A DNA stretch of 64,000 bases, from NCBI RefSeq assembly GCF_010671925.1, contig NZ_JAAHIH010000001.1:613053-677052 (forward strand), read 5' to 3'. The stretch is from Moorena sp. SIOASIH. Its GTDB lineage: Bacteria > Cyanobacteriota > Cyanobacteriia > Cyanobacteriales > Coleofasciculaceae. Both the position numbers and the translations under genes were made by a program. Below, piece after piece: positions 7,680-64,000 of this stretch. How positions within the stretch are numbered: position 1 is the stretch's first letter; every line of letters starts with the position of its first letter. Under the pieces are notes generated by a model. It made no database searches and was not told where the DNA came from. It was given only the letters and a program-made list of their open reading frames with translations.

Positions 7680-8253
7680 CAGGGTCTTGATGTCCAGCAC
7701 TGCGCTCCCCTAAATAACTGGCTCGTCCTTTCTTGGCCACCAACGGAATAGTATTTTTCATCCCTTCTTCTGCGGCGTTGACGGCCTGTTGCAAGGCTGC
7801 TAGCATACTGTCTCCTTTATCTACAGCTTGTGCGAAGGCATTGGCTGCGGGTGATAGAGCATCTAACATGGTCTTATCTCCCAAGTTGGCTTTGCCTCGC
7901 TGGACGACTCCCTCCACTGCTGCTTGGAATAGTTTGACCATATCCTCTTTTGTCAGTTCTTGCTTTCCTGCTACTGCTGCACTTGAGCGCAAGAACAGGG
8001 TGCCATAAAGTGGTCCACTGGCACCTCCGACACTGGAAATTAGAGTCATGCTGACGGTTTTGAGAATACTGCCAATGTCTTTATCTGCCACTTTAGGAAG
8101 CTCAGTGATCACCTTTTGAAAGCCACGATTCATATTGATACCGTGGTCAGCATCACCAATAGCAGCATCAAGTTCGGTTAGATAGTCCTTGTTTTGTTCT
8201 AGTACAGTAGCGACTGCTTGTAACCACTGTAGAATTTGATGTTTAGTTACCAT
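7639..8253 (-). CDS. dhaL: Dihydroxyacetone kinase ADP-binding subunit DhaL; its C-terminus is replaced by intron-derived sequence
   Basis: ELDAAIGDADHGINMNRG, GGASGPLYGT and KKGRASYLGERSAGHQDPD motifs. The last 12 codons (..DWVGRRDCSLFAP) are read from the group II intron 3' end rather than from dhaL. Confidence 0.8.
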   Translation of the reverse strand: MVTKHQILQWLQAVATVLEQNKDYLTELDAAIGDADHGINMNRGFQKVITELPKVADKDIGSILKTVSMTLISSVGGASGPLYGTLFLRSSAAVAGKQELTKEDMVKLFQAAVEGVVQRGKANLGDKTMLDALSPAANAFAQAVDKGDSMLAALQQAVNAAEEGMKNTIPLVAKKGRASYLGERSAGHQDPDWVGRRDCSLFAP

Positions 8254-8299
8254 AGTGGCAGACTGGGTCAGGGGATGAGAGCCTCAGGGTAGCAATGAG

Positions 8300-11979: not shown

Positions 11980-13635
11980 ATGATTAAACCTTCTATTCCC
12001 CCGGCTACCCCTGAACCCTCACCGCTCCATGAACTAATTGCCAAGCTAGTACTGTTCAAACCCCATCGGACTAAGCTATTTCCCTGGTTGCTACCTGGTG
12101 CAGGCACATTGCCATCTCTCAATCAACGGTTAGGCCATCAACCCCTGTTGGATTTTTTGAATTACAACTTGCGTGGCATTGGCCAGGTAATCTTTGTGAA
12201 CAACCCCCTGAGTGGGTTATTGATTCTGGTAGCACTGTTTATTCAGTCACCTTGGGTAGGGGTGATGAGTGTAGTGGGTGTGGTGGCTTCAACCGTAACT
12301 GCCATCTTCCTTGATCTTAATCGCGATAGTCTTCGCAACGGTATTTTTGGCTATAACGGGATTTTAGTCGGAGCAGCACTTGCTACTTTTGGGGCATCCG
12401 GGAATGGTAACTGGAATCCCCTCTGGATCATCGCTGCTATCATCTTTTCTGCTCTTACCACTCTGCTGATCAAGACCGTCGGAGTCTGGTTTGCCAGCAA
12501 GCTGAAATTTCCCCCCCTAACCTTGCCCTTTATTGCGGCAACCCTGTTATTTCTGGTGATTGCGGTCTGGATGCCTCAACCAGTTTATACCTTGGGGAGC
12601 ACGCCGACTCCCCCACCTGTCTTGGAACCGATCAATTGGTGGCAACTTGCCACCTCCGTGCCGATTGGGTTTGGACAGGTGTTTTTAATGGATAAGTTTG
12701 TGGCTGGGGTGCTTGTCCTGGCCGCAGTTGCCTGGTGTACACCGATTGGGGCAGCTGTCGGATTATTGGGGGGAGTATTCGGTACCCTGGCGGCGCTGAT
12801 CACAGGTGTCGGTGCTGACACCATCTCGGCTGGATTGTGCAGTTACAACGCCATCTTGACAGCAATGGCTATTTCTGGAGTATTTTTTGCCCCCAACCTG
12901 CGCAGCTTACTTGCGGGCATTTTTTTGGCTTTTTTTTCAACTCTCCTGGGGGGCATTTTAAGCCACATCTTCAGCCTACTTAACTTGCCCATCCTGACCT
13001 TACCCTTCTGTTTGGTCACAATCCTAGGTTTCCGGTATTTGCAGCAGACACTGCCATCATTAGTCCCAGTTCCCCTACATGCGATCGCTAGCCCAGAAGA
13101 ACATTACCAGCGTTACCTGGTTGCCAAAGATATCCTTACCACATTTCGCCGTCAGATGCAAGGGGCAATGGCCGGTACACCCCACCTATATTTATTTGAG
13201 TCTGCCTCCGCCTCAACCAAAGGAAATATCGAATATCTCTTTAATGCCATTGATACCGATTTCAGTAACACCCTTTCGGTTAACGAGCTAGCAGAACACC
13301 TGCGGCAAGTCAAACGAGGTATGTCTCAACAGGAATTGGATTATTTGTTTCGTTGTATGGATATTGATGGCAGTGGTGAAATTGATCTGGCTGAGTTTGG
13401 TGAATTGTTATTGCGTCAGCAACGATTGATGTCTAACTATAACGACTTCATTACTTACTTTATACCAATTGATGCTAATCAGGATGATGCTATCAGTATC
13501 GATGAAATGAATTTAGCTTTTGCCAGTGTAGGTGAATCACCCCTTAGTGTACATGAAGTGAACTTTTTATATGGTCGCATGAATGGAGAAGCTATCACCT
13601 GGAATCGCTTTATTGAAGTTTTATTGGTGACTTGA
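11980..13635 (+). CDS. Urea transporter (UT family) fused to a C-terminal multi-EF-hand domain
   Basis: The UT signature LRGIGQVIFVNNPLSGLLIL is followed by about 8 predicted TM helices. The C-terminal ~190 aa carries EF loops DTDFSNTLSVNE, DIDGSGEIDLAE and DANQDDAISIDE. Confidence 0.75.
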   Translation: MIKPSIPPATPEPSPLHELIAKLVLFKPHRTKLFPWLLPGAGTLPSLNQRLGHQPLLDFLNYNLRGIGQVIFVNNPLSGLLILVALFIQSPWVGVMSVVGVVASTVTAIFLDLNRDSLRNGIFGYNGILVGAALATFGASGNGNWNPLWIIAAIIFSALTTLLIKTVGVWFASKLKFPPLTLPFIAATLLFLVIAVWMPQPVYTLGSTPTPPPVLEPINWWQLATSVPIGFGQVFLMDKFVAGVLVLAAVAWCTPIGAAVGLLGGVFGTLAALITGVGADTISAGLCSYNAILTAMAISGVFFAPNLRSLLAGIFLAFFSTLLGGILSHIFSLLNLPILTLPFCLVTILGFRYLQQTLPSLVPVPLHAIASPEEHYQRYLVAKDILTTFRRQMQGAMAGTPHLYLFESASASTKGNIEYLFNAIDTDFSNTLSVNELAEHLRQVKRGMSQQELDYLFRCMDIDGSGEIDLAEFGELLLRQQRLMSNYNDFITYFIPIDANQDDAISIDEMNLAFASVGESPLSVHEVNFLYGRMNGEAITWNRFIEVLLVT

Positions 13636-18110: not shown

Positions 18111-18149
18111 AAGGTATATAAACACCTTTGTATCTGGGTTGTGAACATA

Positions 18150-18205
18150 CTCCCAAAGGCAAGAGGCAAGAGGCAAGAGGCAAGAGGCAAGAGGCAAGAG
18201 GCAAA
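18150..18205. repeat. Heptamer repeat (GGCAAGA)6 in the dhaM 5' leader
   Basis: Direct reading; duplicated at 19555-19585. Confidence 0.85.
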
Positions 18206-24909: not shown

Positions 24910-25506
24910 ATGGCATTAGTACCTATCCGTAAGGCGGTCGAACTTACAGGACTATCTCCAAACACACTACGGAAGTATGCAGACAATGGCACCATTCGAT
25001 GCGAGAGAACCCCAGGAGGGACTAGACTCTTTGACTCAACAGATCTTCGCAGTTTTGGAAAAGCTCGAAGGGCTAGTAGACCCAACAATGTCACCATCTG
25101 CTACTGCCGAGTCAGTAGCAGTAAACAACGAGACGATCTCGCTCGCCAAGTCGCCTATCTGCATTCCCTCTTCCCCGAAGCAGAAATCATCTTTGACATC
25201 GGTTCCGGCCTCAACTACAAAAGAAAGGGGCTTAGAACCATACTGGAGCGAGTTGTCTGCGGAGATAAGCTCACGATTGTTGTTGCCTGTAAAGACCGAC
25301 TTACCCGATTCGGGTTTGAACTCATTGAGTACTTGGTCGGTCTCAACGGTGGAAAAATCCTGGTTCTCGACCAGTCTAAAAACTGCCCAGAATCAGAGCT
25401 TACCGCAGATCTTCTCTCCATCATTCACGTCTTCTCCTGTCGGGTTCACGGACTCAGGAAATACGGTCAGAAAATCAAAGAAGATTCGTCTGTTCCTAAA
25501 CCCTAG
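24910..25506 (+). CDS. tnpA: IS607-type TnpA: MerR-like HTH + serine recombinase (resolvase) catalytic domain
   Basis: HTH LVPIRKAVELTGLSPNTLRKYADNG. Resolvase motifs ICYCRVSSSKQRDDLARQ (catalytic Ser) and VVACKDRLTRFG. Confidence 0.8.
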   Translation: MALVPIRKAVELTGLSPNTLRKYADNGTIRCERTPGGTRLFDSTDLRSFGKARRASRPNNVTICYCRVSSSKQRDDLARQVAYLHSLFPEAEIIFDIGSGLNYKRKGLRTILERVVCGDKLTIVVACKDRLTRFGFELIEYLVGLNGGKILVLDQSKNCPESELTADLLSIIHVFSCRVHGLRKYGQKIKEDSSVPKP

Positions 25507-26581
25507 TCAGCGATCGCTAGTCCGTAAGTGGTTCGGAGTGTCCCGTTATGTTTTCAATAAAACAGTTAAAATTCTCCAGAGTGGCGAAGTAAAAGCCAAC
25601 TGGAAAGCCATTAAAACTGGTATTCTAAATGACCTACCCGACTGGTGCAAGGAAGTGCCTTATCAGATCAAATCGATAGGGATTAAGGATGCTTGCACTG
25701 CTGTCAGGGAGGCTAAGAAGAAGTACAAGAAAACATTAGATATAAACCGGGTAAGGTTTAGATCTCGAAAGAATCCTATTCAGTCTTGCTATATCCCAAA
25801 GTCAGCCATTTCAGATGTAGGGATGTATCACACTAAATTAGGCGAGCTAAAGTATTCAGAGCCTCTTCCAATAGAAGTGTGCGACAGCCGACTAACCAGC
25901 AATAATGGGGACTTCTATTTAGTAGTTCCCCATAAAGTAACAAAAACGAATGCCGAAAACCAAGGTAGAGTAGTTGCTTTAGACCCTGGAGTCAGAACTT
26001 TCATTACTTTTTTCAGTGAGACATCTGTCGGGAAGATTGGGCATGGGGACTTTTCAAGAATCCAGCGACTCTGCCAACACCTAGACAACCTACTGTCTAA
26101 AATCAGTAAAGCTAAAGGTGGGCAAAAGCGTCGGATGAAGAAAGCCGCCAGGCGAATGGTTATTAAGATTCAAAATCTAGTCAACGAATTGCACCATAAG
26201 ACGGCTAGATTCTTGGTTGATAACTTCGATGTAATTCTTATCCCTACTTTTGAGACATCTCAGATGTCAAGGAAAGGGAACAGGAAAATTAGATCTAAAA
26301 CCGTTCGTAATATGCTCACCTTCGCTCATTACCGTTTCAAAGAATTTCTAAAACATAAAGCCCAGGAAATGGGGAAACTGGTAATAGATGTCTGTGAGGC
26401 TTACACCAGTAAGACTGTTAGTTGGACAGGTGAATTGCTCAACATTGGTGGAAGCAAAATAATCACATCGAAAGTTGATGGTCGATCTATGGATCGAGAC
26501 ATTAACGGCGCTCGGGGGATATTCCTCAGAGCCTTGGGAGATACCCCCTGGTTGCGAGAGCAACTTGCATTAGTGAGCTAA
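25472..26581 (+). CDS. tnpB: TnpB (OrfB) RuvC-like RNA-guided nuclease-family protein of the IS607 element
   Basis: KIRLFLNPSQRSLVRKWFGVSRYVFN is a typical TnpB N-terminus. ALDPGVRTF is RuvC-I. The C-terminal DINGARGI follows a zinc-finger-like region. The start codon is uncertain: there is no in-frame ATG near the conserved N-terminus, so it is probably a GTG/TTG start overlapping the tnpA end. Confidence 0.75.
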   Translation, partial: KSKKIRLFLNPSQRSLVRKWFGVSRYVFNKTVKILQSGEVKANWKAIKTGILNDLPDWCKEVPYQIKSIGIKDACTAVREAKKKYKKTLDINRVRFRSRKNPIQSCYIPKSAISDVGMYHTKLGELKYSEPLPIEVCDSRLTSNNGDFYLVVPHKVTKTNAENQGRVVALDPGVRTFITFFSETSVGKIGHGDFSRIQRLCQHLDNLLSKISKAKGGQKRRMKKAARRMVIKIQNLVNELHHKTARFLVDNFDVILIPTFETSQMSRKGNRKIRSKTVRNMLTFAHYRFKEFLKHKAQEMGKLVIDVCEAYTSKTVSWTGELLNIGGSKIITSKVDGRSMDRDINGARGIFLRALGDTPWLREQLALVS

Positions 26582-42414: not shown

Positions 42415-43950
42415 TCGCGCAGCGGAGGCCGTAGGCCAAAAGCGTGGCCTACGGCCAGGTCGTGGCTTCCAGCTTCACGGAAGAATGCCTCAACTTGGAC
42501 GGACGTCCACGTCTTGGTCTTACTTCTTCGACCCTGGCGTTGACCTCCCCCGTCCCAGAGGAGGATAGCATTCTGATCCCTTCTGCTCTAATATTCTTTG
42601 CCGCATTACCATCTCTATCATGATGAGTGCCACAGCTTGGACAAACCCAAGACCTTACATGTAGCGGTAACTCTTTGATTCGGTAATGACAATTAGAGCA
42701 GGTTTTGGAACTGGGAAACCATCGATCTATCTCAACTAGTACTTTTCCTTCTTTTTCGCATTTATAAGAAAGAAAATTAACAAAATTTCCCCAACTTAGA
42801 TCAGATATTGCTTTAGCTAATTTGTGGTTACGAACCATGCCCTTGACGTTTAGGTTTTCGACTACCACTACCTGGTTATTGTCAACTATTTTTCTAGATA
42901 GCTTATGCAAGTAGTCTTGGCGGACATTTCCAATCCGTTCGTATACCTTAGCTACAATCTTTTTGGCCTTTTTGCGTCCATTGCTCCCTTTCTTTTTTCG
43001 GGCAGCAATACGCTGCTTTTTCGCTAGTTTATTTTCGTACTTTGCTAAATGCTTGGGATTCCCAAATTTAGAAGTTTTTTCACCATCGTAGGTGATCGCA
43101 AAATCTTTAATACCTAAATCAATACCAATCACTTTACCTGTGGCCTTTGGCCACGCTGCGCGAACAATAGATGGCTTTACGTCGTTCGAGTCGTATTGCA
43201 TCAGTACAGAGGCATAGTATTTACCGGAAGGAGTCTTGCTGACTGTGACAGTTTTGATTTCTCCATCTAATGGTCGGTGGATTATTGCTTTAACAACTCC
43301 CAACTTTCCGGGAAATTTGAGACAGTCACCTACCTGTTTTACGTACTGTGGATATTGGATTGATTGACGGTGATGATATGACTTGAATTTAGGATATTTA
43401 GCTCTACCTTGGCCTATGGCCACGCTACGCGAACAAAAAAGTTTTGATATCCACGACTAAGATTGAGACTGACCGATTGCAAAATCTGAGAGTAACAATC
43501 CTTTAGCCATACGGTTTTCTCGTCTTTTTTGAGTTTTGGCAACATAGCATTAAGTGCAGAACGAGACAATCCTTTCCCGGTTTCCTTGTAGGTTTCTATG
43601 CACTGATTTAGAGCATAATTCCACCACCAACGAGCACAGCCAAAGTGCTGAGCAAGTATATGAACTTGCTCTTGTGTGGGGTAAATTCGGATCTTTACGG
43701 CTTGATGTCTCATTTTTCCTGCATTTGCTATCGACCTATATATCATTATATGTCATTTGTGATAAATCGTCAATTCATCAGCAAAGGTTTTGAGAGGGCT
43801 ATCCATCCTAGAGACGAAACCTGATTGTTAGTGGAGCCTTTATGGTTAGTCGGCTATGCATAAAAGGGTTAAAACTTTTTGATTAAGGCTCCACTATCCT
43901 TACGGTAACTTCAACACCTGGACGTTCGCGCAGCGTGGCCAAAGGCCAGG
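42415..43950 (-). mobile_element. IS200/IS605-family TnpB-only (IS1341-like) element with hairpin repeats at both ends
   Basis: The tnpB reading frames are flanked by GTTCGCGCAGCG-GTGGCC-loop-GGCCAC-type hairpins at 42420-42470 and 43924-43948. Confidence 0.45.
42449..43746 (-). pseudogene. tnpB: tnpB split into two ORFs by insertion of a 25-nt REP-like hairpin repeat
   Basis: The N-terminal ORF 43414-43746 (KIRIYPTQEQ..) ends ..FVRVAWP at a TAG created by the repeat (43410-43437, TGGCCTATGGCCACGCTACGCGAACAA). The C-terminal ORF 42449-43423 carries RuvC motifs (IGIDLGIKDF, VVVENLNVKGM) and a zinc finger (CSNC..CPSCG). A second copy of the repeat at 43141-43167 is in frame and encodes VRAAWPKA. 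Confidence 0.75.
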
Positions 43951-44357: not shown

Positions 44358-47300
44358 ATGCATTTTGGAATTCAGGATAGCCGATTAAAAACGATATTAC
44401 CCATGAGCCAAATCAAATTAGCTGTGAGTCAAATCAGCCAGTCCCTGGCAGCCGTATCTTTGTTGGTAGCCCATATTGGTGTCATGCCAACTCAAGCACA
44501 GCCCATTCAAGCCGATGGTAGCACTCCGACCCAAGTCACCCCCAATGACAATCAATTTGATATTGATGGTGGAACCCCCTCTGGAAATAATCTCTTTCAC
44601 AGCTTTCAAGAGTTTGGTCTAGACCAAGACCAAATTGCTAACTTCCTATCTCAACCGGGTATACAAAACATTCTGAGTCGGGTCACCGGTGGTAATGCTT
44701 CTGTGATCAACGGTCTAATACAAGTTACAGGGGGCAGCCCTAACCTGTTTTTAATGAACCCAGCGGGGATAATTTTTGGTGCTAATGCCCAGCTGAATGT
44801 CCCTGCTTCTTTAACTGCAACTACGGCCACCAGCATTGGCTTTGGTGATGACAATTGGTTTAATGCCTTTGGTGACAATGACTACTCTAGCTTAGTCGGT
44901 ACACCCAGTGCCTTTGCGTTTGATACATCCCAGACACCTGGGACATCCCAGACACCGGGACTAATTTTTAATGAGGGTATAGAAATCCTAGAAGGAAATA
45001 ACCTGACTTTAATCGGTGGTACTGTCATTAACACCAATCAACTGGAGCTTCCAGACGGAACAATTACTATAGCTACGGTGCCTGGGGGAAGTTTGGTAAA
45101 AATTAGCCAGCAAGGAAGTTTGCTGAATTTGGAAGTTGAACCCCTAACCTCAAATCCCTCCACAGCAGAACAATCTTTTACACCGCTCTCTTTAGCGGAG
45201 CTATTAACCGGGGATGATGTCAGTCATGCCACAGAATTCACGGATAATGGTGATAACACGGTGACCTTGACTAGTTCTGGCATCACTATATCGCCTGGTG
45301 ATGTAACTGTTTCTGCCAACAATAACCTGACTCTGAGAGGAAGCCAGCTATCTAGCACGGGGGAATTAACCCTATTGGCGAAAGAGACCGTACTGATCAG
45401 GGACACACCAGAGAATTCCTTCCAAGCAGTAGCAGGAGGAAACCTCAAGATTCAGGGGGATGGGGGCATTGATATCCAAGCACTGAAGAATCCCAACACC
45501 CGCTTCGAGAGTGGTGGCGACCTGACATTGGTCAGCGATGGCACGATCTCTACAGATGCTCACTTTGCCAGTGGCGGTAATTTCTCAATTGAAAATTTAG
45601 CTGGTGAACCAGGTAACTTTGTTAGCCTCCAAGACCCAATTATCACTGCTGACGGAGATGTTACGTTTGGGAATTACACAGGGTCTTCTCTTAAAGTAGA
45701 ATCCACAGGAAATATTGAAGCTGGGAATATCAAAATCACCGCACCAGATACTGGGCTAGCCGATTTAGACTCAGAGTTAACAGATACTCAGCCAGAAAAT
45801 TTTCTAGAGTTAGTTTCCACTTCAAAGCGGAACGAATTAGATAGTGAAACTTTAAACAAATTAGAGAATCAAACCTTAAAAACTACTCGTGCCGTGATTT
45901 TAAGGGCGGGTTTGAATAAAGATGAATTGAGCAATCAAGTTACGGTAAATTCTGGAGATGCTTCATCCAATCAAGTTACGGACAATGCTGGAGATGCTTC
46001 ATCCAAAGGGAGTATCACCATTGGTAATATCGATACCAGTAATCCTCCTAATGGTGGTGGTAATAATGCTCCTGGAATTCAAGGTGATGCTGGTCCTGTG
46101 ATATTATCTGCTAAAGGTGACATTATTTTTCGCAATAGCAATAGTGATGGGACAAATAATAATATTAGAAATAATAATTTAACCCAAATAAGAACCACAG
46201 AAACAAATGGGAATAATTCTGGTAATGTATTTTTGGAAACCAAAGAGGGCAGTATTAGGATAGAGGGAGTAGGACTCGATATCAACACTGAGGTTTCAAG
46301 CGATGGTAATGCTGGGAAAGTAACGTTTCAGGTTCCAAATTTAGATAATATCGACTCTGGTAAGTTGCAACTCAGGACAAGAGCTCGGGGTAGTGCTGAT
46401 GCTGGTGATGTAGAGTTTGTTAGTCAGCAAGAGAGCAGCCCAGAGCAGAAACAACAAATAAGAGATCAAATCGAGGAAGATGTGCGGGCTTTCGGTGGAG
46501 GGGGTATAGGTGATTTTATTTTTAGCCGTTTTCCCACAGATACTAATACAGAAGAGGAAACAAACCAACAAAACGACACAAACCAACAAGAAGAAACAGA
46601 CCTTATAGAAGAAACCGACCTTATAGACACTGGTGAAACCGACCTTATAGACACTGGTGAAACCGACCTTATAGACACTGGTGAAACCGACCTTATAGAC
46701 ACTGGTGAAACCGACCTTATAGACACTGGTGAAACCGACTCTGACTCTAACCTTAATGTTAGCTTGGGCGAAGGTAATGAAATTGTTAATGAAACATCCC
46801 CTGAAACAAGTGACTCCAACGGTGGAAACAGTGGTAAGCAGACTCCCGCTTCCACCTCTGACAAGACTGCGATCACTGACACCCAAGAGTCCTCTAGCTC
46901 AGACCCTAGTAGCTCAGACCCTGGTAGTTCAGACGCTAGTAGTTCAGACCCTGGTAGTTCAGAACCTGGAACCCCTACTGCTTCATCTCAATCAAATTCC
47001 CCAACTGAGGAGGTCTCACCTGAAACTGACCCAGTTTATTTAATTGAAGAAGCCTTCACCAAAGAATATCAGTCACACTTTCAGCGATCGTTCAAGACGA
47101 AAATCAACACACAGAATGATGTCCGCAATCGGACTCGGGAGCTTGAGAGGGAGACAGGGCTAAAGACTGCGGTGATTTACGTCAGTTTTGTCGAAAATTC
47201 CAGTACCTTACCAGGCACTCGATGTCAAAGTCCCTCAATCCCTGTTTCCAAAATCGACCGACGGTTTGGTTACCGACTCTCTCAGGTGCCTCAAGCACCA

Positions 47301-48353
47301 GAGCGTTGCTTACCAAAACCAAACGACCAGCTGGAACTTTTGGTGATCACCGCTGAAGGTAATCCAATTCTGCGGCGAATCAATGGTGCAAGTCGTGATC
47401 AAGTCCTAGCTGTGACCAATACATTTCAGCGATCGCTTAGCAATCCCCACAGCTTGGATGCCAAAGCCCACCTAAATCCAGGTGAGCAACTTTATCAATG
47501 GATCATAGCGCCCTTACAGAAGGAATTAAATGACCGCAAGATTCAGAGCCTAATATTTGCTATGGATGAGGGTTTGCGCTCCCTACCCCTAGCAGCTATC
47601 TACGATGGGCAACAATATCTGGTTGAGAAGTATGGTGTTAATTTGGTGCCTAGTCTGAGCTTAACCTATTCTCGTCACACAGATGTGAGACCCTTCCGGG
47701 TTCTGGCAATGGGAGCATCGAAATTTCGTTATCAAAATCCTTTGCCTGGGGTAGAAGTGGAGTTAAGCACCATCACTGAAAAACTGTGGAAAGGTCGCTC
47801 TTTTCTCAACGAAGCCTTTACTCTCGAAAATTTAATGGCTCAACGACAACAGCGGCAATATGGCATCATTCACCTAGCCACCCATGCAGAGTTCAACTCG
47901 GGAACTCCTAACGATTCCTACATTCAGATGTGGAACCGCAAACTAAGGCTGTATGAAATGAAAAATCTACTTTATGAGCCATCGGTAGAGTTGTTGGTAC
48001 TCAGCGCTTGCCGAACCGCTTTGGGCAATCGAGAAGCGGAGTTGGGTTTTGCTGGGTCAGCTTTTCAGGCAGGAGTTGACTCGACTTTGGCAACCCTTTG
48101 GTATGTCAGTGATCAAGGTGCTCTGGGGCTAACTACTGAGTTTTACCGTCAGTTGAGAAAGACATCGAGTAAAAGTGAAGCTTTGCGACAGGCACAGTTA
48201 GCGATGATTCAAGGCAATGTGCGTATCGAGAATAATCAGTTATATGGCTCGGGCAAGAACATCTCGTTACCGCCAGAATTGTCAGGAGCAGGAAAACAAA
48301 GCTTTTCTCATCCCTACTATTGGGCTGCTTTTACCCTAGTTGGGGATCCCTAG
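44358..48353 (+). CDS. Giant protein: filamentous-haemagglutinin N-terminal (TPS-type) domain + internal repeats + C-terminal CHAT (caspase-like) domain
   Basis: N-terminal FHA-N motifs: NFLSQPGIQNILSRVTGGNASVINGLIQV, NLFLMNPAGIIFGANAQLNV. Internal (ETDLIDTG)5 and SSDPGSSD repeats. C-terminal CHAT motifs: IIHLATHAEF (His) and LVLSACRTALG (Cys). Confidence 0.8.
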   Translation: MHFGIQDSRLKTILPMSQIKLAVSQISQSLAAVSLLVAHIGVMPTQAQPIQADGSTPTQVTPNDNQFDIDGGTPSGNNLFHSFQEFGLDQDQIANFLSQPGIQNILSRVTGGNASVINGLIQVTGGSPNLFLMNPAGIIFGANAQLNVPASLTATTATSIGFGDDNWFNAFGDNDYSSLVGTPSAFAFDTSQTPGTSQTPGLIFNEGIEILEGNNLTLIGGTVINTNQLELPDGTITIATVPGGSLVKISQQGSLLNLEVEPLTSNPSTAEQSFTPLSLAELLTGDDVSHATEFTDNGDNTVTLTSSGITISPGDVTVSANNNLTLRGSQLSSTGELTLLAKETVLIRDTPENSFQAVAGGNLKIQGDGGIDIQALKNPNTRFESGGDLTLVSDGTISTDAHFASGGNFSIENLAGEPGNFVSLQDPIITADGDVTFGNYTGSSLKVESTGNIEAGNIKITAPDTGLADLDSELTDTQPENFLELVSTSKRNELDSETLNKLENQTLKTTRAVILRAGLNKDELSNQVTVNSGDASSNQVTDNAGDASSKGSITIGNIDTSNPPNGGGNNAPGIQGDAGPVILSAKGDIIFRNSNSDGTNNNIRNNNLTQIRTTETNGNNSGNVFLETKEGSIRIEGVGLDINTEVSSDGNAGKVTFQVPNLDNIDSGKLQLRTRARGSADAGDVEFVSQQESSPEQKQQIRDQIEEDVRAFGGGGIGDFIFSRFPTDTNTEEETNQQNDTNQQEETDLIEETDLIDTGETDLIDTGETDLIDTGETDLIDTGETDLIDTGETDSDSNLNVSLGEGNEIVNETSPETSDSNGGNSGKQTPASTSDKTAITDTQESSSSDPSSSDPGSSDASSSDPGSSEPGTPTASSQSNSPTEEVSPETDPVYLIEEAFTKEYQSHFQRSFKTKINTQNDVRNRTRELERETGLKTAVIYVSFVENSSTLPGTRCQSPSIPVSKIDRRFGYRLSQVPQAPERCLPKPNDQLELLVITAEGNPILRRINGASRDQVLAVTNTFQRSLSNPHSLDAKAHLNPGEQLYQWIIAPLQKELNDRKIQSLIFAMDEGLRSLPLAAIYDGQQYLVEKYGVNLVPSLSLTYSRHTDVRPFRVLAMGASKFRYQNPLPGVEVELSTITEKLWKGRSFLNEAFTLENLMAQRQQRQYGIIHLATHAEFNSGTPNDSYIQMWNRKLRLYEMKNLLYEPSVELLVLSACRTALGNREAELGFAGSAFQAGVDSTLATLWYVSDQGALGLTTEFYRQLRKTSSKSEALRQAQLAMIQGNVRIENNQLYGSGKNISLPPELSGAGKQSFSHPYYWAAFTLVGDP
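46595..46740. repeat. 24-nt in-frame tandem repeat (GAAACCGACCTTATAGACACTGGT)x5 inside the FHA/CHAT gene
   Basis: Direct reading; encodes ETDLIDTG units. Confidence 0.85.
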
Positions 48354-57020: not shown

Positions 57021-57860
57021 ATGAAAATGAACAAAACCATTGCTAAAAAATTATTACTGTTCGCTACAGTAACCGGTTCCGTTCTCGCTGCTGCACCCAG
57101 TTTGGCTGCTACTTTCGCTTTGTCTAAAGGATCCTTTGACTTGAGAAACTTTAGTACTGATCCTCTGGAAGTCGTTACCCTGGCTGAAGCCGACACTTTT
57201 ACGATTTCAACTGGGGGTGAGGTGATTGCTGAGGCGAACGCGGAGTCAAGTTTTACCCCTGATTCACTCAATCCACTAAAACGAGCTCGTAATAAATCTT
57301 TGAGTACCGCTGAGGGTGAAGGAAGCAACTACCGTGGTGTGGCGGAAAGTTTTGCTGGACTTATCGGTTACAACTTCTTTGTCGATGCAGGGGAAACCTT
57401 TTCTTTCGATTTCAATGGTTTTCTCGATCTAATCACATTAATCGACAATCCACCTGCAGAAAGTGCAAGTGCCGAGGGCACCATAACTTTGGAGTTATAT
57501 CACAGCAATGACTTGAGTACTCCCATCGACTTCTTCGCTCTCTCTGGTAACTTAGAGACTCTAGGAGATGATGATTTCCTTGTGTCTGCTCACAGTGACA
57601 ATGTGTTTGCTGATAACGACTTTACTAAGTTGTTTGGAGGAACAGAGGAATTTGCTCTGGCTGATGTTCAGGGTTATTATGAGCGCACTTTCGAGACAGC
57701 AACTTATTTGACCTTAGTCGAAGCTAAAACGAATAAGGTAACCGTTAAAGCTCCTGAATCCTCAAACTTGCTAGGCTTACTTTTCTTTGGTTTACTGAGC
57801 ATTGGATACCGAGTAAAAACTAAAAGTTTTACCGATAAGTCAAAATTATTAAGGGATTAA
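57021..57860 (+). CDS. Secreted PEP-CTERM-anchored protein
   Basis: N-terminal signal peptide. C-terminal APESSNLLGLLFFGLLSIGYRVKTK is a PEP-like motif followed by a TM segment and a basic cluster, i.e. an exosortase sorting signal. Confidence 0.65.
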   Translation: MKMNKTIAKKLLLFATVTGSVLAAAPSLAATFALSKGSFDLRNFSTDPLEVVTLAEADTFTISTGGEVIAEANAESSFTPDSLNPLKRARNKSLSTAEGEGSNYRGVAESFAGLIGYNFFVDAGETFSFDFNGFLDLITLIDNPPAESASAEGTITLELYHSNDLSTPIDFFALSGNLETLGDDDFLVSAHSDNVFADNDFTKLFGGTEEFALADVQGYYERTFETATYLTLVEAKTNKVTVKAPESSNLLGLLFFGLLSIGYRVKTKSFTDKSKLLRD

Positions 57861-58040
57861 TCCTACTAATAATCAAGTCCGGTTAATCACGTATCAACTC
57901 CTGGATTGTTGCTCATTAGTAATCGGTAATGAGTAATCGTAAACTACCAATTACTAATCCCCCTATTACCAATTACTAATTACCCGATCAGGAATATGAT
58001 AATTAGTCAACCGGATTTGATAGGATTAGTTATTAGTTGG

Positions 58041-58077
58041 AAAAAAATAAGGGAGCATTTTGCTCCCTTATTTTTTT
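58041..58077. terminator. Bidirectional intrinsic terminator A7-TAAGGGAGC-loop-GCTCCCTTA-T7
   Basis: A 9-bp perfect stem flanked by an A-run and a T-run, 180 nt downstream of the PEP-CTERM gene. Confidence 0.7.
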
Positions 58078-58458
58078 CCTGATTTTGCTCTCTTATCTTT
58101 GACCGTAGAAGAAGCAAAGCTAGAGCTGGAACTTCTACTATAACTCCTGCCCGACTCTCTGGTCACAGTAACCTCTTGACTGGTGTTTGCTTGATCACTA
58201 GATGCAAATGCCCTACTTTCCGCTTGGACTACTACCTTTCCATCTGGTGAAACTATCCATTTTCTGATTATCGGGGAGCGAATCATAATTTAATGCCTCC
58301 ATGGCTTTTTTGATAGATGTTTACCTACTTTAAAGGGTAAGCTATCAGCTGATAGCTGATAGCTGATAGCACCTCAAGTAGCGTGCGCGTAGCGCATAAG
58401 CTGATAGCTTACGACTGATAGCTGACTTACCCATTACCCATTACCCTAAATAATTCCA

Positions 58459-59241
58459 CTACTGACTTAACGCCTCAACAGTTTGACTCTCAACATTATC
58501 AAGCATAGTGTCACTATGAAGCATATAGTTGAGTTCACGATTGAGCCAATCCTGAAACAGTCTATCCAATATCTCGTCGTACCTTTCCGGTGTTAATTCA
58601 GCAGGGATAAATGTTTCTACCATCAAGATATGATAACCCTGAGGAGTTTTGACCGGATTGACCACTTGTCCAATAGGTACACCAAAGACAATCGCTGCTA
58701 TATCTGGACGTAAATTCCAACGGTAAAGCTTCCCTTCAAAACCGCACTTCTGTCGGCGTTCCTCATCAATGTCATAGATATGAGCTGCTTCATAAAAGCT
58801 AATTTCTTTTTCTTCAATTTGATAGAAAAGTTCTTGGGCAAGTTTACCGTTTTCTACAAGGATTTGATAAAGCAAGATTTGGTCAAAATCTAGTCGGTTT
58901 TGACCAAAAAACTTTTCCACGTCTTTATCAAATAGAGACTTGGATAACTTTTTAGCTAGCAATTGCTGGCGAATTCCGGCTTCCCAGTCATCGGAAGTAA
59001 TCATATTATCCGCTAGCCAAGCTAGAGTGTCTGAAGCCTTCTCCAAGCGATTTTGGTGACGGAATTTATCTGCCTCTTCCTGAATTTCTTCGGCGGTGAC
59101 GGTTAAGTTTCTTTCGACAGCAGCTCGATTAATGACTTTTTGATACAAAATTTTCTCAGAGACGTCTTTGAGCTTGATTTCTCGTTTCAGAAACTCAGTA
59201 ATTTCCTGTGGTTCAAGAGATGCTCTAGAAAGAATAGTCAT
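58459..59241 (-). CDS. PpiC-type peptidyl-prolyl cis-trans isomerase (SurA-like N-domain + parvulin domain)
   Basis: The C-terminal KTPQGYHILMVE is the parvulin signature; 260 aa. Confidence 0.7.
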   Translation of the reverse strand: MTILSRASLEPQEITEFLKREIKLKDVSEKILYQKVINRAAVERNLTVTAEEIQEEADKFRHQNRLEKASDTLAWLADNMITSDDWEAGIRQQLLAKKLSKSLFDKDVEKFFGQNRLDFDQILLYQILVENGKLAQELFYQIEEKEISFYEAAHIYDIDEERRQKCGFEGKLYRWNLRPDIAAIVFGVPIGQVVNPVKTPQGYHILMVETFIPAELTPERYDEILDRLFQDWLNRELNYMLHSDTMLDNVESQTVEALSQ

Positions 59242-59341
59242 GGTTAGGTTTTATTTGCTCAGATTTTAGCTGATGGGGTAATCGGGCAATATATGAGTTA
59301 ACAGATGTAAGGGATGGGGTGATTCCGACTACTTATCAATT

Positions 59342-60172
59342 TTATGCTAAAATTGGATCAGATACTGTGATGAAATCAGCATCAGTGAGGGTAGTTGCAC
59401 TCTGTCCATCCACGGTTCCTTGGACTACAGCTAGAATATCGTTATTGAATTTCACCAAAGTGGCATCAACAATGCCATTACCAGTGCTATCAAATACGTC
59501 TAGTAGGATGTCCTCCCCAGATAGTCCCCCAGTTAAACCAATCTTGTCATTGTCAGCAGCATTGAAATCAGTGATTACATCAGCTAGAGAGGGGTCAGTT
59601 ATCGGACTAGTTGTTTCCAATCCCAGCACAAATGTATCGCTACCGTTTCCCCCTGTGAGAGTATCCGTACCAAAGCCACCAATCAAGACATCGTCCCCAT
59701 CTCCGCCAGTTAGTTCATCATTGCCCTGAGTACCCCGCACTGTGCTATTGCCATTAATAGTAGTCATGCTCATCACATTGGAGCCTACACCTGCACTCAC
59801 ACTGCTGATTAAGCCATTGCTACTGCTTGAACTCAACCGATTACTTGATAAACTGCTATTTGTGCTATTTGTTTGTGAGTCGTTAGTTACTATCCTAATA
59901 CCATCGTTACCATTGATAGCGAGGCTATTGTTTGTGATCGTTCTGGAAGAATTGTTTGAAGAATTGTTTGTAGTCGCAGTTGAACTAGTAATTACACTAG
60001 GGTTCTCTGGGATACTGTCTGGGATACTGTCTGTGATGCTGTCTGTGATACTGTCTGTGATGCTCTGTGTGATGGGCTTTGTGAACCTCTGTTTGAGCCT
60101 CTCTGCAATTCGGCTCAAACGAGGAAATGTAAACCTTATTGTTCTGATGAAACTTCTGTTTAAATCAAACAT
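59342..60172 (-). CDS. Calcium-binding protein with haemolysin-type (RTX) nonapeptide repeats
   Basis: [36 protein letters not shown] are GGxGxD repeats. N-terminal (SITD)n repeats. Confidence 0.7.
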
Positions 60173-60695
60173 GGTTCTGAATCGGTTAGAAGCCGTGTAT
60201 TATTATTAAGCTGCACCTGTTGAACCTGGTTTGTGGAGTGTTAAGTGTTGCATGTGGAGTGTTGACCGTTAACTGCTCTATAGACGAACAAACAGGTCTT
60301 ACTCCTACCAACCTTCAACCGTTAACTGTCAGCAAAAATCGCTCAATTCAAAAACTATGTCAATTAAATGGTGATTAGCTTAAGCCTTTAACCTGTCTCT
60401 ATAAGGCTGCTCCACTCATCGGATAATTGTCTGGTAATTGATTGGTAATTGATTGGTAATTGATTGGTAATTAAATATCTATGAGTTTAGGGAGTTTAGG
60501 CTCAACCTAAAAAAGGAATGAAAATCTTTTACCCTTCATTCCTAATTCGATTCCCTCCTAATTATCAAGCTAGGGGCTAGGTGCTAGGCTATAGAAAGTT
60601 TAGTTACCATCGCCCATCGCCTAGTCTCCCTTACCTATTACCGAAAATTACCGAAAACCCTTATTGATTTATAGCCGGATTTACTACAATCGGTA

Positions 60696-61001
60696 TTATC
60701 TATATCTACCGAAAAACAAAGACAAACTGTCAGACTGAGCCCGGAAAAGTCCTTTCCTAGTCCTAGACTCAGCATCAGCACTCGCCTTGGCGATGCTCTT
60801 CTTTGAAAACCTGCTATTTATTACTCTTGAATCAGCATCAGTCACTGCTGAGGTTTGATCGCCATCAGCGAATGCATTAGCGTCTGCTAATGCCACGTCA
60901 GCTCTAGCAAGTGTTCTGGTATTTGCCTGAGCAATTCCACCGCCTATAATCCAGCTTTCCTGAGCATATTCCCGAAAAAAATTTAGGTTATTAATAATCA
61001 T
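60696..61001 (-). CDS. Small protein with a double-glycine-type leader-like N-terminus (MIINNLNFFREYAQESWIIGGG) and an Ala/Asp-rich body
   Basis: 101-aa ORF upstream of three related tandem genes. Leader assignment is by pattern only. Confidence 0.3.
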   Translation of the reverse strand: MIINNLNFFREYAQESWIIGGGIAQANTRTLARADVALADANAFADGDQTSAVTDADSRVINSRFSKKSIAKASADAESRTRKGLFRAQSDSLSLFFGRYR

Positions 61002-61389
61002 TAATCAACCTCTACCTGTATAGCTGTGCCTCTTAGATTGATGATAAGGATGGATAAGCCTCACATTCTTTTATGAATAAAAAGGGGGTTCCTATCCCAA
61101 AATCCCTAATTTCAAACTACCTACATTTTAAACTACCTGGGCATCACTAGTTTTTGTTAACTGATAGTTTTCAGTAAACTAAAATTACGAAAACCTTTCT
61201 GTTCCAGGTTCTCCGTTCCCTTTTCTTTGTATCCACCCAGTTAATTGGAATTGTTTCCAAATTTGCTCTTTCTATTGGCCTTAATTAAGGGGGAAGCATT
61301 GGTCAGTAAATCTAGAGATGAATTTATCCTATATAGAAATGCTTACCCCCAGCAATCTGATCAGGTACTACGATTAGTCCCTACTAAGA

Positions 61390-61683
61390 TTAGTTCACAA
61401 AAGCCACAGAAAGAGAAATTGCCGAAGAGCCGAAGGAATTGGCTTGAGCGTCAGTAATGGTTTCAGCCAGACTATCCTTACCAACAGCATCAGCGGTAGC
61501 TTCAGCAGTAGCGGCGTTGCCCCGAACCTTCACAATAGACTCAAAGCGCTCTCTGATATCGACCCTTTTATTGATATCAATGTCCTTGAAATCGCGGAAG
61601 AATACACGTCCGGAGAATCCTGCGCCAACGATGTTAGTTTCTTCGTTAACAACTTCGATGTGATTTAGGTCAGAAATATTCAT
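61390..61683 (-). CDS. Small protein, tandem paralog 1 (MNISDLNHIEVVNEETNIVGAG.. leader-like N-terminus)
   Basis: 97 aa. Three near-identical copies at a 506-bp period, each with its own copy of the upstream hairpin/promoter module. Confidence 0.5.
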   Translation of the reverse strand: MNISDLNHIEVVNEETNIVGAGFSGRVFFRDFKDIDINKRVDIRERFESIVKVRGNAATAEATADAVGKDSLAETITDAQANSFGSSAISLSVAFVN

Positions 61684-61895
61684 GGTTGATCTGCTCTTTG
61701 GTTAGTTTTATGTTACTCAACAACTTGGTTGTTGTTACTTTTATTCTACCGCTTCTTATTCAATTTGTATCACTTGTCAAGCCAATTTGGCGGAAACTTG
61801 ATTAAGTTTGGTAGGTGGCTAAGCAAATGCTTAATCCTAGCAATCTTAGTAGGGAATACGGTTTAGTCCCTACTAAGATTTAGTCCCTACTAAGA

Positions 61896-62189
61896 TTAGT
61901 CGACAAAAGCCACAGAAAGAGAAATTGCCGAAGAGCCGAAGGAATTAGCTTGAGCGTCAGTAATGGTTTCAGCCAGACTATCCTTACCTTTAGCATCAGC
62001 AGTAGCTTCAGCAGTAGCGGCGTTGCCCCGAACCTTCACAATAGACTCAAAGCGCTCTCTGATATCGACCCTTTTATTGATATCAATGTCCTTGCGATCG
62101 CGGAAGAATACACTTCCGGAGAATCCTGCGCCAACGATGTTAGTTTCTTCGTTAACAACTTCGATGTGATTTAGGTCAGAAATATTCAT
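61896..62189 (-). CDS. Small protein, tandem paralog 2
   Basis: About 95% identical to paralog 1 at the protein level. Confidence 0.5.
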   Translation of the reverse strand: MNISDLNHIEVVNEETNIVGAGFSGSVFFRDRKDIDINKRVDIRERFESIVKVRGNAATAEATADAKGKDSLAETITDAQANSFGSSAISLSVAFVD

Positions 62190-62401
62190 GGTTGGTCTGC
62201 TCTTTGGTTAGTTTTATGTTACTCAACAACTTGGTTGTTGTTACTTTTATTCTACCGCTTCTTATTCAATTTGTATCACTTGTCAAGCCAATTTGGCGGA
62301 AACTTGATTAAGTTTGGTAGGTGGCTAAGCAAATGCTTAATCCTAGCAATCTTAGTAGGGAATACGGTTTAGTCCCTACTAAGATTTAGTCCCTACTAAG
62401 A

Positions 62402-62695
62402 TTAGTCGACAAAAGCCACAGAAAGAGAAATTGCCGAAGAGCCGAAGGAATTAGCTTGAGCGTCAGTAATGGTTTCAGCCAGACTATCCTTACCTTTGGC
62501 ATCAGCAGTAGCTTCAGCAGTAGCCGCGTTGCCCCGAACCTTCACAAGAGACTCAAAGCGCTCTTGGATATTGACCCTTTTATTGATATCAATGAACTTG
62601 CGATCTTTGAAGTATACACTTCCGGAGAATCCTGCGCCAATGATGTTAGTTTCTTCGTTAACAACTTCGATGTGATTTAGGTCAGAAATATTCAT
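62402..62695 (-). CDS. Small protein, tandem paralog 3
   Basis: About 90% identical to paralogs 1 and 2. Confidence 0.5.
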   Translation of the reverse strand: MNISDLNHIEVVNEETNIIGAGFSGSVYFKDRKFIDINKRVNIQERFESLVKVRGNAATAEATADAKGKDSLAETITDAQANSFGSSAISLSVAFVD

Positions 62696-62699
62696 GGTT

Positions 62700-63060
62700 G
62701 GTCTGCTCTTTGGTTAGTTTTATGTTACTCAACAACTTGGTTGTTGTTAGTTTCATCCTACCGCTATTAATTGAATTTGTCTCACTTGTCACGCCAATTT
62801 GGCTGAAACTTTAGATCGACACTTTTAAGTTAGGTAGCTAACAACAACTTTGGGTTTGTTGTTACTTTAATCCTACCGCTATTAATTGAATTTGTATCAC
62901 TTGTCACGCCAATTTGGCTGAAACTTTAGCTGGATACTTGATTAAGTTAGGTAGGTTGCTAACAACCCCTTGGTTGTTGTTACTTTAATCCTACCGCTAT
63001 TACTTGAATTTGTATCACTTGTCACGCCAATTTGGCGGTAAAGTTTTATATCATGTCAGG
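62700..63060. repeat. Three additional gene-less copies of the ~115-bp upstream module (hairpin AACAACTTGGTTGTTGTT + CTACCGCT..TTGTATCACTTGTCA(A/C)GCCAATTTGGC)
   Basis: Direct reading; the same module precedes each of the three small genes. Confidence 0.8.
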
Positions 63061-63357
63061 ATAATTACCCTTAATAAAAATCTCCCCTATCTCCCCATCT
63101 TCCCATCTCCCCACACCTCCCACCCTCCCCACCCTCTCCTTAATTAATTAAGGGTATTCAACCAGACTTGATATTAGGGATAGTTGAATGTTACAAATTG
63201 TTATGAAAAATACCCAAGTTATGGAAAACTAACTTGGGAGTATTAATGCAATTTATGCAGTATCAAAAAATTAAGAAAAACAAAATAAATTCAGCGATTG
63301 GGGGACTGTAAGCATTGAGCTATCAGCCCCTCACCTTAATGGTGAGATTACCAGTCA

Positions 63358-63792
63358 CTAGAAAAAGCTTACATTCCTAGTAGTTGAGTAGAATTTTTGC
63401 AATTTGTGGTTAAACCACTGTTCTTGAGAGCCCCCTTGCACTAGTTGGCTTCTCCTGTCAAGGGGCTTTGCATAGTCGAGATCTTTAATGTTCCTTAAGC
63501 ACTTCTGAGCAACTGAAACATTAGACAGGGTACCAGCATCTTCCCTATCCTGCTTAAGGCTGTCGGTTGTAGCTTGATTGAGTGAGTCCATTTTCTCGTT
63601 ATCCCGTCGCAATCGGCAGTAGGTTCGCGACGGTATGTATTCTAAGGGGTTAAGACCCAAACAACGCAGCATCAAAACACAAGCCCACGAATACTTGCGA
63701 TCGCGAATTGCTTCTTCAATCAAACTAATCTTTTCAGGATCTAGGGTTTTGCCCAGTTGGCGATTAGAACGACGAAGCATGGAGTAACTCAT
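63358..63792 (-). CDS. HetP-family protein (heterocyst differentiation-related)
   Basis: [33 protein letters not shown] aligns with the HetP core [33 protein letters not shown]. Confidence 0.75.
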   Translation of the reverse strand: [144 protein letters not shown]

Positions 63793-64000
63793 GATGATTT
63801 CTCTTTGATCTGAAGGTCAACGAATTGGATTTGCAGGATTTACGCTTGAACTCTACCTCTAGTTTCAATAGTCAGTGATTCTGGTTGGTCAATTAAGTGA
63901 AGAGTTAGAGTACTGATCTAACCATCTGATTTGAGTTGTGAAACCTCCGAAGATGGCGTGATCGGGTGATCGGGTGATCGGGTGATCTCGAAGAATCTCA

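Follow-up and report, generated by a model that had tools for sequence, protein, structure and literature searches.

Moorena sp. SIOASIH carries, near one end of the 64,000-nucleotide stretch analysed here (contig NZ_JAAHIH010000001.1, positions 613,053 to 677,052; hereafter the window), an array of small and almost identical genes together with repeated copies of a short upstream module. What such an array produces, and how the product could leave the cell, is the question that this locus raises. The original prediction was that of an expanding family of bacteriocin-like or secreted peptides with double-glycine (GG) leaders, exported by a transporter encoded outside the window. Here, we argue that the genes encode precursors of small secreted proteins. 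The leader of the precursors would be recognised and removed by the C39 peptidase domain of a peptidase-containing ATP-binding cassette (ABC) transporter (PCAT) that also bears a cyclic nucleotide (cNMP)-binding domain, and the core would be secreted by this PCAT in concert with an HlyD adaptor and with an outer-membrane channel whose gene lies elsewhere. Judged from sequence and gene context, we consider this processing-and-export mechanism probable. What the secreted core does is a separate and more tentative matter, which we discuss after the family has been described.

Three class-A precursor genes, A (62402-62695), B (61896-62189) and C (61390-61683), lie on the minus strand, as do all features below unless the plus strand is given. 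They are open reading frames (ORFs) of 97 amino acids recognised by a family hidden Markov model (HMM), with E = 1.7e-51 and supporting alignments for gene A, the first of the array; gene C is its last copy. Repeat analysis shows that the three genes are arranged head-to-tail with a period of exactly 506 bp, and their coding sequences are 92-97% identical at the nucleotide and 93-96% at the amino acid level, which confirms this part of the original prediction. In gene A, residues 1-21 form the leader (MNISDLNHIEVVNEETNIIGA, 62633-62695) and leave a core of 76 amino acids; the leaders of genes B and C are encoded at 62127-62189 and 61621-61683. The closest homologs, at 85-97% identity, are found in Moorena (formerly Moorea) only and are annotated as hypothetical in all cases; the contig index lists no protein identical to that of the window.

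A fourth, diverged gene of the array, which we call m4 (class B, 60696-61001), encodes 101 amino acids with the leader MIINNLNFFREYAQESWIIGG and was identified from its ORF, synteny and hhalign. That m4 is related to the main family is supported by an hhalign probability of 97.9% (E = 3e-13), by the retained leader and G-N-x-A-x-A motif, and by the same position of the gene in Moorena, Microcoleus and Tychonema loci. Its core is basic (pI, isoelectric point, 10.1) and a charged segment of about 22 residues is missing relative to class A. We assign m4 to a separate conserved paralog class, true but distinct from class A. The fourth member had been predicted as such, and it is indeed a paralog, but its leader differs from the N-terminal pattern that was quoted for all four genes.

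The precursor leader has 21 residues (MNISDLNHIEVVNEETNIVGA) and ends with Gly20-Ala21 in the window copies and with GG in most relatives. It is near-invariant within Moorena and in a wider set of about 100 distinct proteins (about 25 genera), whereas the cores diverge in length and sequence. Residues 1-18 are free of any difference among genes A, B and C, and the consensus across genera is M-(N/I)-I-S-D-L-N-(H/Y)-(I/L/V)-E-x-V-x-E-x-(T/S)-x-(I/V)-x-G-G. The canonical double-glycine pattern used for comparison has hydrophobic residues at -4, -7, -12 and -15 and an acidic residue at -8, and the Ile at -4 and the Glu at -8 of the leader agree with it.

No C39 or ABC exporter is encoded within the 64-kb window. 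From 61366 to 64000, the window and a Moorena sp. SIO3G5 contig (locus L005) are colinear with 96% identity, and this contig continues from a HetP-like gene to an HlyD adaptor of 544 amino acids and then a C39-ABC transporter. We infer that in the present genome, too, hlyD is next to the HetP-like gene, beginning about 0.75 kb beyond position 64000, and that the exporter gene lies beyond it. The full order of the cluster in Moorena starts with the cNMP-binding/C39/ABC exporter (1070 amino acids), HlyD, HetP, the class-A peptides (1, 3 or 4) and m4, and proceeds with an RTX protein, PpiC, a 72-residue ORF and a 279-residue protein on the opposite strand, and then an epimerase and uroporphyrinogen decarboxylase as in the window. 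Eight other Moorena loci share the exporter-HlyD-HetP-peptide neighbourhood. In a scan of one genome per species, which gave 55 loci with 1-6 tandem peptide copies and with arrays being common, the same cluster was found with minor rearrangements in about 45 of the 55 loci of other genera. The 55 loci are from Coleofasciculus, Microcoleus, Oscillatoria, Tychonema, Limnoraphis, Limnospira, Potamolinea, Chroococcidiopsis and Pseudanabaena as well as from heterocystous genera (Mastigocoleus, Scytonema, Rivularia, Fortiea, Richelia, Hassallia and Iningainema).

The C39 domain of the exporter aligns with the structure of PCAT1, and its catalytic Gln, Cys, His and Asp are all present, so it should be an active peptidase rather than a degenerate C39-like domain. 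The best models for the exporter are those of type I secretion and bacteriocin exporters, and HlyD scores 255 bits against the cut-off of 209 for TIGR01843. The predicted GG-leader-type secreted family with a C39-ABC/HlyD pair outside the window is therefore supported by locus L005 and the other loci, by the conserved leader and by the intact C39 domain.

Three observations speak against this assignment. The leader has Glu at -7 and -12 in place of the canonical hydrophobic residues, its hydrophobic residues being found at -10/-11, -13 and -16. The resemblance to bacteriocin-type leaders that had been predicted does not extend to the curated leader HMMs, since none of TIGR01847, TIGR03793 (NHLP) and TIGR03798 (Nif11) matches at E <= 1. 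Moreover, the transporter is not in the window, and its presence in this genome is deduced from the 96% colinearity. The absent HMM match does not sink the GG-leader assignment, because context and conservation outweigh it, and on this basis we treat the sequence as a variant GG leader.

How widespread is the family, and what kind of protein is the core? A profile search of 1.84 billion representative proteins returned 287 clusters (50% identity) at E <= 0.001, mostly of 90-105 amino acids, and dozens of genera have full-length homologs, which are 30-60% identical and reach E = 1e-24. Giant cadherin-repeat proteins (P0050 and P0127) among the profile matches were discarded as sums of weak per-repeat matches with independent E > 0.001. 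Scans of NCBIfam and Pfam (E <= 1 and E <= 10) gave no family for the window peptides or for diverse relatives, and a match to MtgC was noise (E about 0.01-0.03; cut-off 310 bits). In the window, the class-A cores of about 76 residues are free of Cys, with Ala (11), Ser (8-9) and Asp (6-8) as the top residues; the predicted richness in Ala and Asp and the lack of Cys hold, but that in Thr does not. Their pI is 5.2-6.4 and their net charge -0.2 to -1.2. Over the whole family, the median core pI is 4.9, and 81% of cores are acidic and 92% Cys-free. A core motif, (V/I)-D-(I/V)-x-K … G-N-x-A-x-A-E-A-x-A-x-A-x-G-x-(D/N)-(S/T) … E-T-x-T … S-x-S-x-S-x-A, runs through the family, and an aromatic tail closes many cores. 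AlphaFold2 gave no confident monomer fold for the core, with a predicted local distance difference test (pLDDT) score of 45 from 20 sequences and 49 from 150 diverse sequences, and a C-terminal beta-hairpin was the only predicted element. The family profile searched against all PDB sequences returned matches at chance level only.

A hint at the function of the core came from relatives outside cyanobacteria. In about 15 profile matches, the same core stands behind a Sec signal peptide that is followed by L-x3-(Q/E)-(L/M)-D-x-V-T-A-(A/G)-G. Two of these Sec-type relatives were placed on contigs of 68-69% GC (L070 3405-6745; L072 3129-8964). Their neighbours are a stand-alone C39 peptidase with a signal peptide, for which the best NCBIfam models are FapD ("fibril amyloid maturation endopeptidase") and FilB (E = 5e-23 and 6e-29), a protein of 423-532 amino acids matching FapF/FilC (E = 4e-10 and 3e-4), and a GerE-type regulator. 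Six Sec-secreted proteins in L070 and L072 share L-x3-4-(L/M)-D-x-(V/I)-T-A-G-(S/A/Q) after the signal peptide. By appearance, the two loci encode a Fap-like system that has not been described before and that has a propeptide of GG-like type. They resemble the Fap (FapA-F) and Fil systems known from Pseudomonas and Acinetobacter in combining a C39 protease with beta-rich subunits that are secreted; the cyanobacterial loci differ in using one-step PCAT/HlyD export, not Sec followed by an outer-membrane channel.

We propose that the mature product could be an abundant, self-assembling, extracellular beta-rich protein of the matrix, sheath or fibrils, comparable to EbfG of Synechococcus and to the subunits of Fap-type fibrils. 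A structural-fibril function of the core, rather than one as a toxin, is what we tentatively favour, with somewhat less than even confidence. The acidic and mostly Cys-free cores, for which no confident monomer fold is predicted, and the Sec-type relatives beside FapD- and FapF-like genes are in line with such a role. A published parallel is found in Synechococcus, where the PCAT PteB exports EbfG1-4, proteins with a GG motif, of which EbfG1-3 assemble into amyloid within the biofilm matrix (PMC4997328, PMC9981879). The scores and searches also hold points that tell against fibrils. FapD is matched with 81-101 bits against a cut-off of 330, and FapF with 20-39 bits against 700; as these scores are far under the equivalog cut-offs, the neighbours are to be taken as relatives of Fap/Fil components, not orthologs. 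The core itself has no sequence similarity to FapB/C/E or CsgA in NCBIfam or to solved structures in the PDB. The case for fibrils draws on the context of distant relatives and on negative evidence.

Could the peptides instead be antimicrobial, namely bacteriocins or microcins of the class II type that leave the cell unmodified through the PCAT and whose array diversifies in an arms race? Such a reading would account for a GG-type leader in a C39-ABC/HlyD context, and the cluster type has been catalogued under 'bacteriocin gene clusters' (PMC3140520). The number of copies varies from strain to strain, and the changes between window copies are more often non-synonymous than synonymous (7:2, 11:5 and 4:3, with site numbers too small for a formal test) and are limited to the core. 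Leaders of class II bacteriocins and microcins (colicin V/CvaB; TIGR01847), and also those of the NHLP/Nif11 type, are alike in the GG/GA end, the Ile at -4, the Glu at -8 and the pairing with a C39-ABC transporter. Class II bacteriocins are typically cationic, and the 76-residue Moorena cores, which are large by comparison, are acidic or neutral, as is the family at large. The cluster holds no modification genes, and no conserved small membrane ORF for immunity was seen among its genes, although no systematic transmembrane search was made. Conservation of a core motif over cyanobacterial orders and other phyla would be unusual for fast-evolving toxins, and relatives of the core are found in the Fap-like operons. 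We therefore consider a bacteriocin unlikely, and this option of the original prediction has lost ground to a secreted structural protein.

How the array could be expressed is suggested by the sequences in front of the genes. A module of about 115 bp is present in five copies in the window, all of them at the array (0.00 expected). Within it, an 11-bp palindrome, GCCAAATTGGC, has five copies (0.05 expected) and a hairpin, CAACAACCAAGTTGTTG, four matches (0.03 expected). Three modules stand in tandem 5' of gene A, where the proximal one serves gene A, and genes B and C have one each. The gene-less modules, predicted as three, are two (palindromes at 62908 and 63026; the third, at 62793, serves gene A). 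The prediction of a module with a hairpin before each gene holds for genes A to C and fails for m4, upstream of which the search of the window found no module.

In the module of gene A (62696-62815), the palindrome (62793-62803) abuts a -35-like GTGACA (62787-62792), and a CGGTAGGAT box (62755-62763), a stem-loop (62730-62746) and an A/C-rich 5' untranslated region follow. The module of gene B (62190-62310) has its palindrome at 62287-62297, TTGACA at 62281-62286, CGGTAGAAT at 62249-62257 and a stem-loop at 62224-62240, and that of gene C (61684-61805) has the same elements at 61781-61791, 61775-61780, 61743-61751 and 61718-61734. The two extra promoter/operator modules (62816-63057; Tandem Repeats Finder, period 115, 2.6 copies) carry palindromes at 62908-62918 and 63026-63036 and degenerate stem-loops at 62842-62860 and 62963-62981. 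The composition of the 5' leader is 48% A and 23% C.

That the palindrome is functional is suggested by its conservation. The module is near-invariant between Moorena strains, even where the peptides are just 61% identical. In the fetched loci (0.96 Mb), 77 exact palindromes were found against 0.23 expected, and 35 of the 77 stand 92-110 nt 5' of the start codons of GG-peptide genes, in genera including Microcoleus, Tychonema, Coleofasciculus, Potamolinea, Iningainema, Limnospira and Nostoc. It directly abuts a -35-like hexamer, which is TTGACA or GTGACA in Moorena and AACACA or GAGACA elsewhere, and in most genera a TAnnnT box follows 17 nt after the hexamer. The centre of the palindrome would lie near -41 of the deduced transcription start, a position typical of class II activator sites. 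Further copies of the palindrome are seen in Moorena about 390 bp before the stop codon of the exporter gene and in other genera in the exporter-hlyD intergenic region (L001 5531, L003 3150, L006 4637 and others; L043, L046, L047, L052, L054, L056 and L067); these positions suggest a common regulator for hlyD and the peptide genes.

In 29 of 33 distinct upstream regions, a small stem-loop is found 37-52 nt past the palindrome, its stem sequence being genus-specific and its position conserved. Two observations argue against a simple promoter with a structured 5' end. The best-conserved AT box of Moorena, CGGTAG(A/G)AT, is 26 nt from the hexamer and gives no sigma-70 spacer fit, and the single stem-loop is weak (-3.6 to -7.4 kcal/mol), with about 9% of shuffles folding equally well. 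We regard the palindrome as robust and the stem-loop as moderately supported. In a consensus promoter scan, sigma-70-like sites numbered 4 against 8.0 expected from shuffles, and because this is no excess, the promoter assignment rests on conservation across genera.

Known regulators were also compared. A sigma-54 -24/-12 reading of the palindrome was rejected on inspection, as the GG-GC spacing is wrong; to our knowledge, sigma-54 is absent from cyanobacteria. The consensus sites of NtcA (GTA-N8-TAC) and CRP (TGTGA-N6-TCACA) do not fit either. In the searchable literature, the palindrome was found in unrelated primers only. An Rfam scan of 58000-64000 gave nothing in the array, with sub-threshold matches only near 58040 in a low-complexity hairpin.

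Tandem modules are not peculiar to this strain. Every Moorena strain examined has 3-5 of them before the first class-A gene, strains with a single gene included, at a period of 103-125 bp with one gap of 175 (L001, L003, L005-L007, L010, L012, L017 and 62787-63036 of the window). Therefore, what had been taken for gene-less copies is a conserved promoter/operator array, not debris. Stacked promoters and amplified genes fit bulk production of the peptide.

The 3' ends of the genes have structures of their own, which the original prediction did not mention. Right after gene A stands a strong hairpin (62330-62405; -28.6 kcal/mol, z = -5.35), a terminator or 3' stabiliser, and repeat analysis places a hairpin of identical sequence after gene B (61842-61897). 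After gene C, at the edge of the amplified unit, a lone arm (61374-61391) forms no stable fold (z = -0.48). The 5' arm of the hairpins after genes A and B is a direct duplication of 17 nt, and therefore the junction of the 506-bp amplified unit lies inside the hairpin. A hairpin with a T-run, resembling an intrinsic terminator, follows m4 (60514-60543) and is likely the end of the peptide gene block. Each class-A gene would thus be a self-contained unit with a palindromic operator, a hexamer, a stem-loop near the 5' end and a 3' hairpin.

Copy number was expected to be changing, and it does: Moorena strains have 1, 3 or 4 class-A genes. Some copies are identical within one strain (L5b and L5c), and L6a-c are 97-99% alike within their strain and about 88-93% between strains. 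The best pairs across strains are gene C with L5b/c (98.3%) and gene B with L5a (98.0%). This mixture of similarity within and across strains would be expected if entire transcription units still undergo unequal exchange and conversion, and unequal exchange at the repeats could alter gene dosage among strains. A repetitive sequence with hairpins at its unit boundaries could also be a non-coding or mobile element in which the ORFs are fortuitous. Such an element would hardly have the full-length homologs described above or conserved synteny with an exporter, and the module is confined to this locus within the window. We give this explanation a negligible chance and consider it refuted by the conservation of the genes.

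Directly upstream of the array lies a HetP-family gene (63358-63792; NCBIfam NF037966, 76 bits against a cut-off of 45), and its product contains a leader-like motif internally, NIKDLDYAKPLDRRSQLVQGG, at amino acids 101-121 (63430-63492). With an HMM built from the leader alone, a corresponding motif was detected in the HetP-like proteins encoded at many loci, and the genuine HetP of Anabaena (alr2818; sequence from Fig. S1 of PMC3140520) reads IKDLAYLEVVGKQTTEIHGG. The motif regular expression is matched by 82 of 120 HetP homologs and by 0 of 120 shuffled sequences, and the motif is always at about 65% of the protein length. That HetP carries a motif KIxDLxYLEx10GG was already noted by Wang et al. 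in 2011 (PMC3140520). What we add is that, by sequence comparison, this motif is the leader of the adjacent peptide family, which suggests that HetP may be recognised by the C39 domain of the exporter.

HetC of Anabaena/Nostoc PCC 7120 has the same cNMP, C39 and ABC domain order as the exporter and is followed by HetP (PMC10986499). When HetC was sought by its published residue numbers (C347/H420/E970), the matches were Leptodesmis proteins that agreed by coincidence of length, and the true hetC-hetP locus was reached via the alr2818 sequence. HetC is 51-52% identical to the Moorena exporter, 54% to the exporters beside family peptides in Fortiea and Nostoc PCC 7524, and only 39-40% to the second exporter lineage. 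A neighbour-joining tree made without bootstrap places it on a long branch with the exporters of Nostocales, in the same clade as these PCATs. The genuine hetC locus holds no HlyD, no family peptide and no palindrome, in accordance with a statement of 2024 that GG-leader genes are absent near hetC (PMC10986499); a weak leader-like frame 3' of hetP (L068 11695-11817) was rejected for its poor match and missing start codon. In Nostoc PCC 7524 (L064 9411-9701, plus strand) and Nostoc NIES-3756 (L062 9217-9552), a family peptide stands beside a cNMP-C39-ABC exporter that is 57-60% identical to that of Moorena, closer than HetC, and is not followed by HetP. Nostocales therefore have this system in addition to hetC. 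HetC appears to be a relative within this exporter clade, not a demonstrated ortholog, and the Moorena arrangement may resemble the ancestral cluster.

These observations raise the question whether the peptides are exported signals or developmental regulators of a HetC/HetP circuit, which would act between cells on filament differentiation or behaviour, with their dosage tuned by copy number. Such a role would give meaning to the HetP-family gene between HlyD and the peptides and to the leader motif inside HetP; the true HetC is of the same clade, and its substrate is described as unknown (PMC10986499). Diffusible signals are, on the other hand, not expected to have cores of 76 residues with a conserved repetitive beta-type motif, and Moorena is non-heterocystous. 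The missing family peptide and palindrome at the genuine hetC-hetP locus and the multi-copy genes with stacked promoters, which indicate bulk production, further speak against signalling, and we find it quite improbable.

Taking the fibril proposal further, it is conceivable that the family is the subunit of a phylum-spanning and hitherto unrecognised class of C39-matured extracellular fibrils, that the HetC substrate could be recognised by its leader, and that hetC-hetP descended from a matrix-secretion cluster. Filamentous cyanobacteria would then export the subunit in one step by a HetC-type PCAT/HlyD under the GCCAAATTGGC operator, and other bacteria would use Sec followed by FapD/FapF-like maturation. 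HetP, the heterocyst-commitment factor, would with its internal leader either serve the C39 domain of the exporter as a substrate or regulate it by competition. We put forward this extension as a speculation of doubtful standing.

Two published sets of loci are the closest to the Moorena cluster. The EbfG1-4/PteB locus of Synechococcus elongatus PCC 7942 likewise has small tandem GG/GA-motif genes beside a cNMP-C39-ABC exporter and HlyD (PMC4997328, PMC9981879), a likeness of gene arrangement and motif that is taken from published descriptions and not from sequence comparison. The EbfG products are secreted matrix components. Their genes are co-transcribed, whereas the Moorena peptide genes each have their own operator/promoter and terminator, and HetP, PpiC, RTX and PEP-CTERM-like genes are further members in Moorena. 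Groups I, II and VI of Wang, Fewer and Sivonen (2011; PMC3140520) share the long-type C39 ABC transporter, HlyD, SurA/rotamase, arrayed GG precursors and HetP-like neighbours, and the Moorena cluster matches groups I/II in type. In its proposed mode of action, the cluster agrees with PCAT substrates generally and with EbfG/PteB most of all. In that catalogue, most precursors were left as 'other' with no function, and its supplements contain no leader strings of the ISDLN kind. In the libraries available, we found no earlier description of the family and its core, the m4 class, the cross-genus operator, the Moorena promoter arrays or the Fap/Fil-like context of the Sec-type relatives.

Among the common cyanobacterial GG-leader PCAT substrates, only EbfG has a demonstrated role. 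The present work describes a large family with a near-invariant leader and a conserved core that has so far neither a name nor a Pfam or NCBIfam model (about 290 clusters at 50% identity), ties it to an exporter clade that includes HetC, and links its core to Fap-like fibril systems outside cyanobacteria. The conserved operator could help to find the regulator, and the leader M-I-I-S-D-L-N-x-L-E-V-V-x-E-x-x-x-I-x-G-G together with its copy in HetP offers a concrete test of the HetC substrate. Moorena has been mined mainly for non-ribosomal natural products; the locus described here suggests that a protein is also secreted in abundance, possibly as a component of the sheath or mat matrix.

Other members of the cluster lie downstream of m4. 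A PpiC/SurA-type peptidyl-prolyl isomerase without a signal peptide (58459-59241; Pfam Rotamase, a weak TIGR04500 'peptide maturation' match, and synteny) is a conserved member, and an RTX calcium-binding repeat protein (59342-60172, 276 amino acids; library scans and synteny) is a frequent one. The RTX protein has 456-526 amino acids in other Moorena strains and is a remnant of 108 amino acids in strain 3L; its N-terminal SITD repeats are encoded by a 12-bp tandem repeat (60006-60073). The gene is evidently unstable. The opposite-strand neighbour p279 (57021-57860, plus strand) has a signal peptide and a PEP-CTERM-like C-terminal anchor, with a tail of …APESS, a hydrophobic stretch and RVKTK; it is present in most related loci and has no match in Pfam or NCBIfam. 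A second, paralogous Moorena locus (L053 of SIO3I8, L054 of M. bouillonii and L056 of M. producens 3L) has an exporter 71% identical to the first, HlyD, HetP, PpiC and about four GG-leader peptides of two other core classes, with the same palindrome upstream of them.

The spacer between gene C and m4 (61245-61457, plus strand; its counterpart in L003 is 8128-8262, minus strand) is about 85% conserved among strains and holds a small antisense frame common to them (…ALIKGEALVSKSRDEFIL…); it is probably conserved non-coding DNA. The array is bordered by short tandem repeats, namely TAATTGATTGG in 4.5 copies (60424-60472), ATCTCCCC in 4 copies (63080-63113) and GTGATCGG in 3.8 copies (63958-63987).

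Elsewhere in the window, an arginase-family enzyme with N-terminal EF-hands (10456-11964, plus strand) is adjacent to a urea transporter with C-terminal EF-hands (11980-13635, plus strand), and such a pair of calcium-sensor fusions is unusual. A fused EIIA(Man)-HPr-Enzyme I protein of the phosphotransferase system (PTS) with 977 amino acids is encoded at 15264-18197, minus strand. IS605 OrfB/TnpB genes lie at 24977-26581 (plus strand) and 42449-43423 (minus strand), and an RRXRR-HNH endonuclease at 487-1761 (plus strand). Finally, a protein of 1331 amino acids encoded at 44358-48353 (plus strand) combines a two-partner secretion (TPS) domain with a CHAT protease domain.

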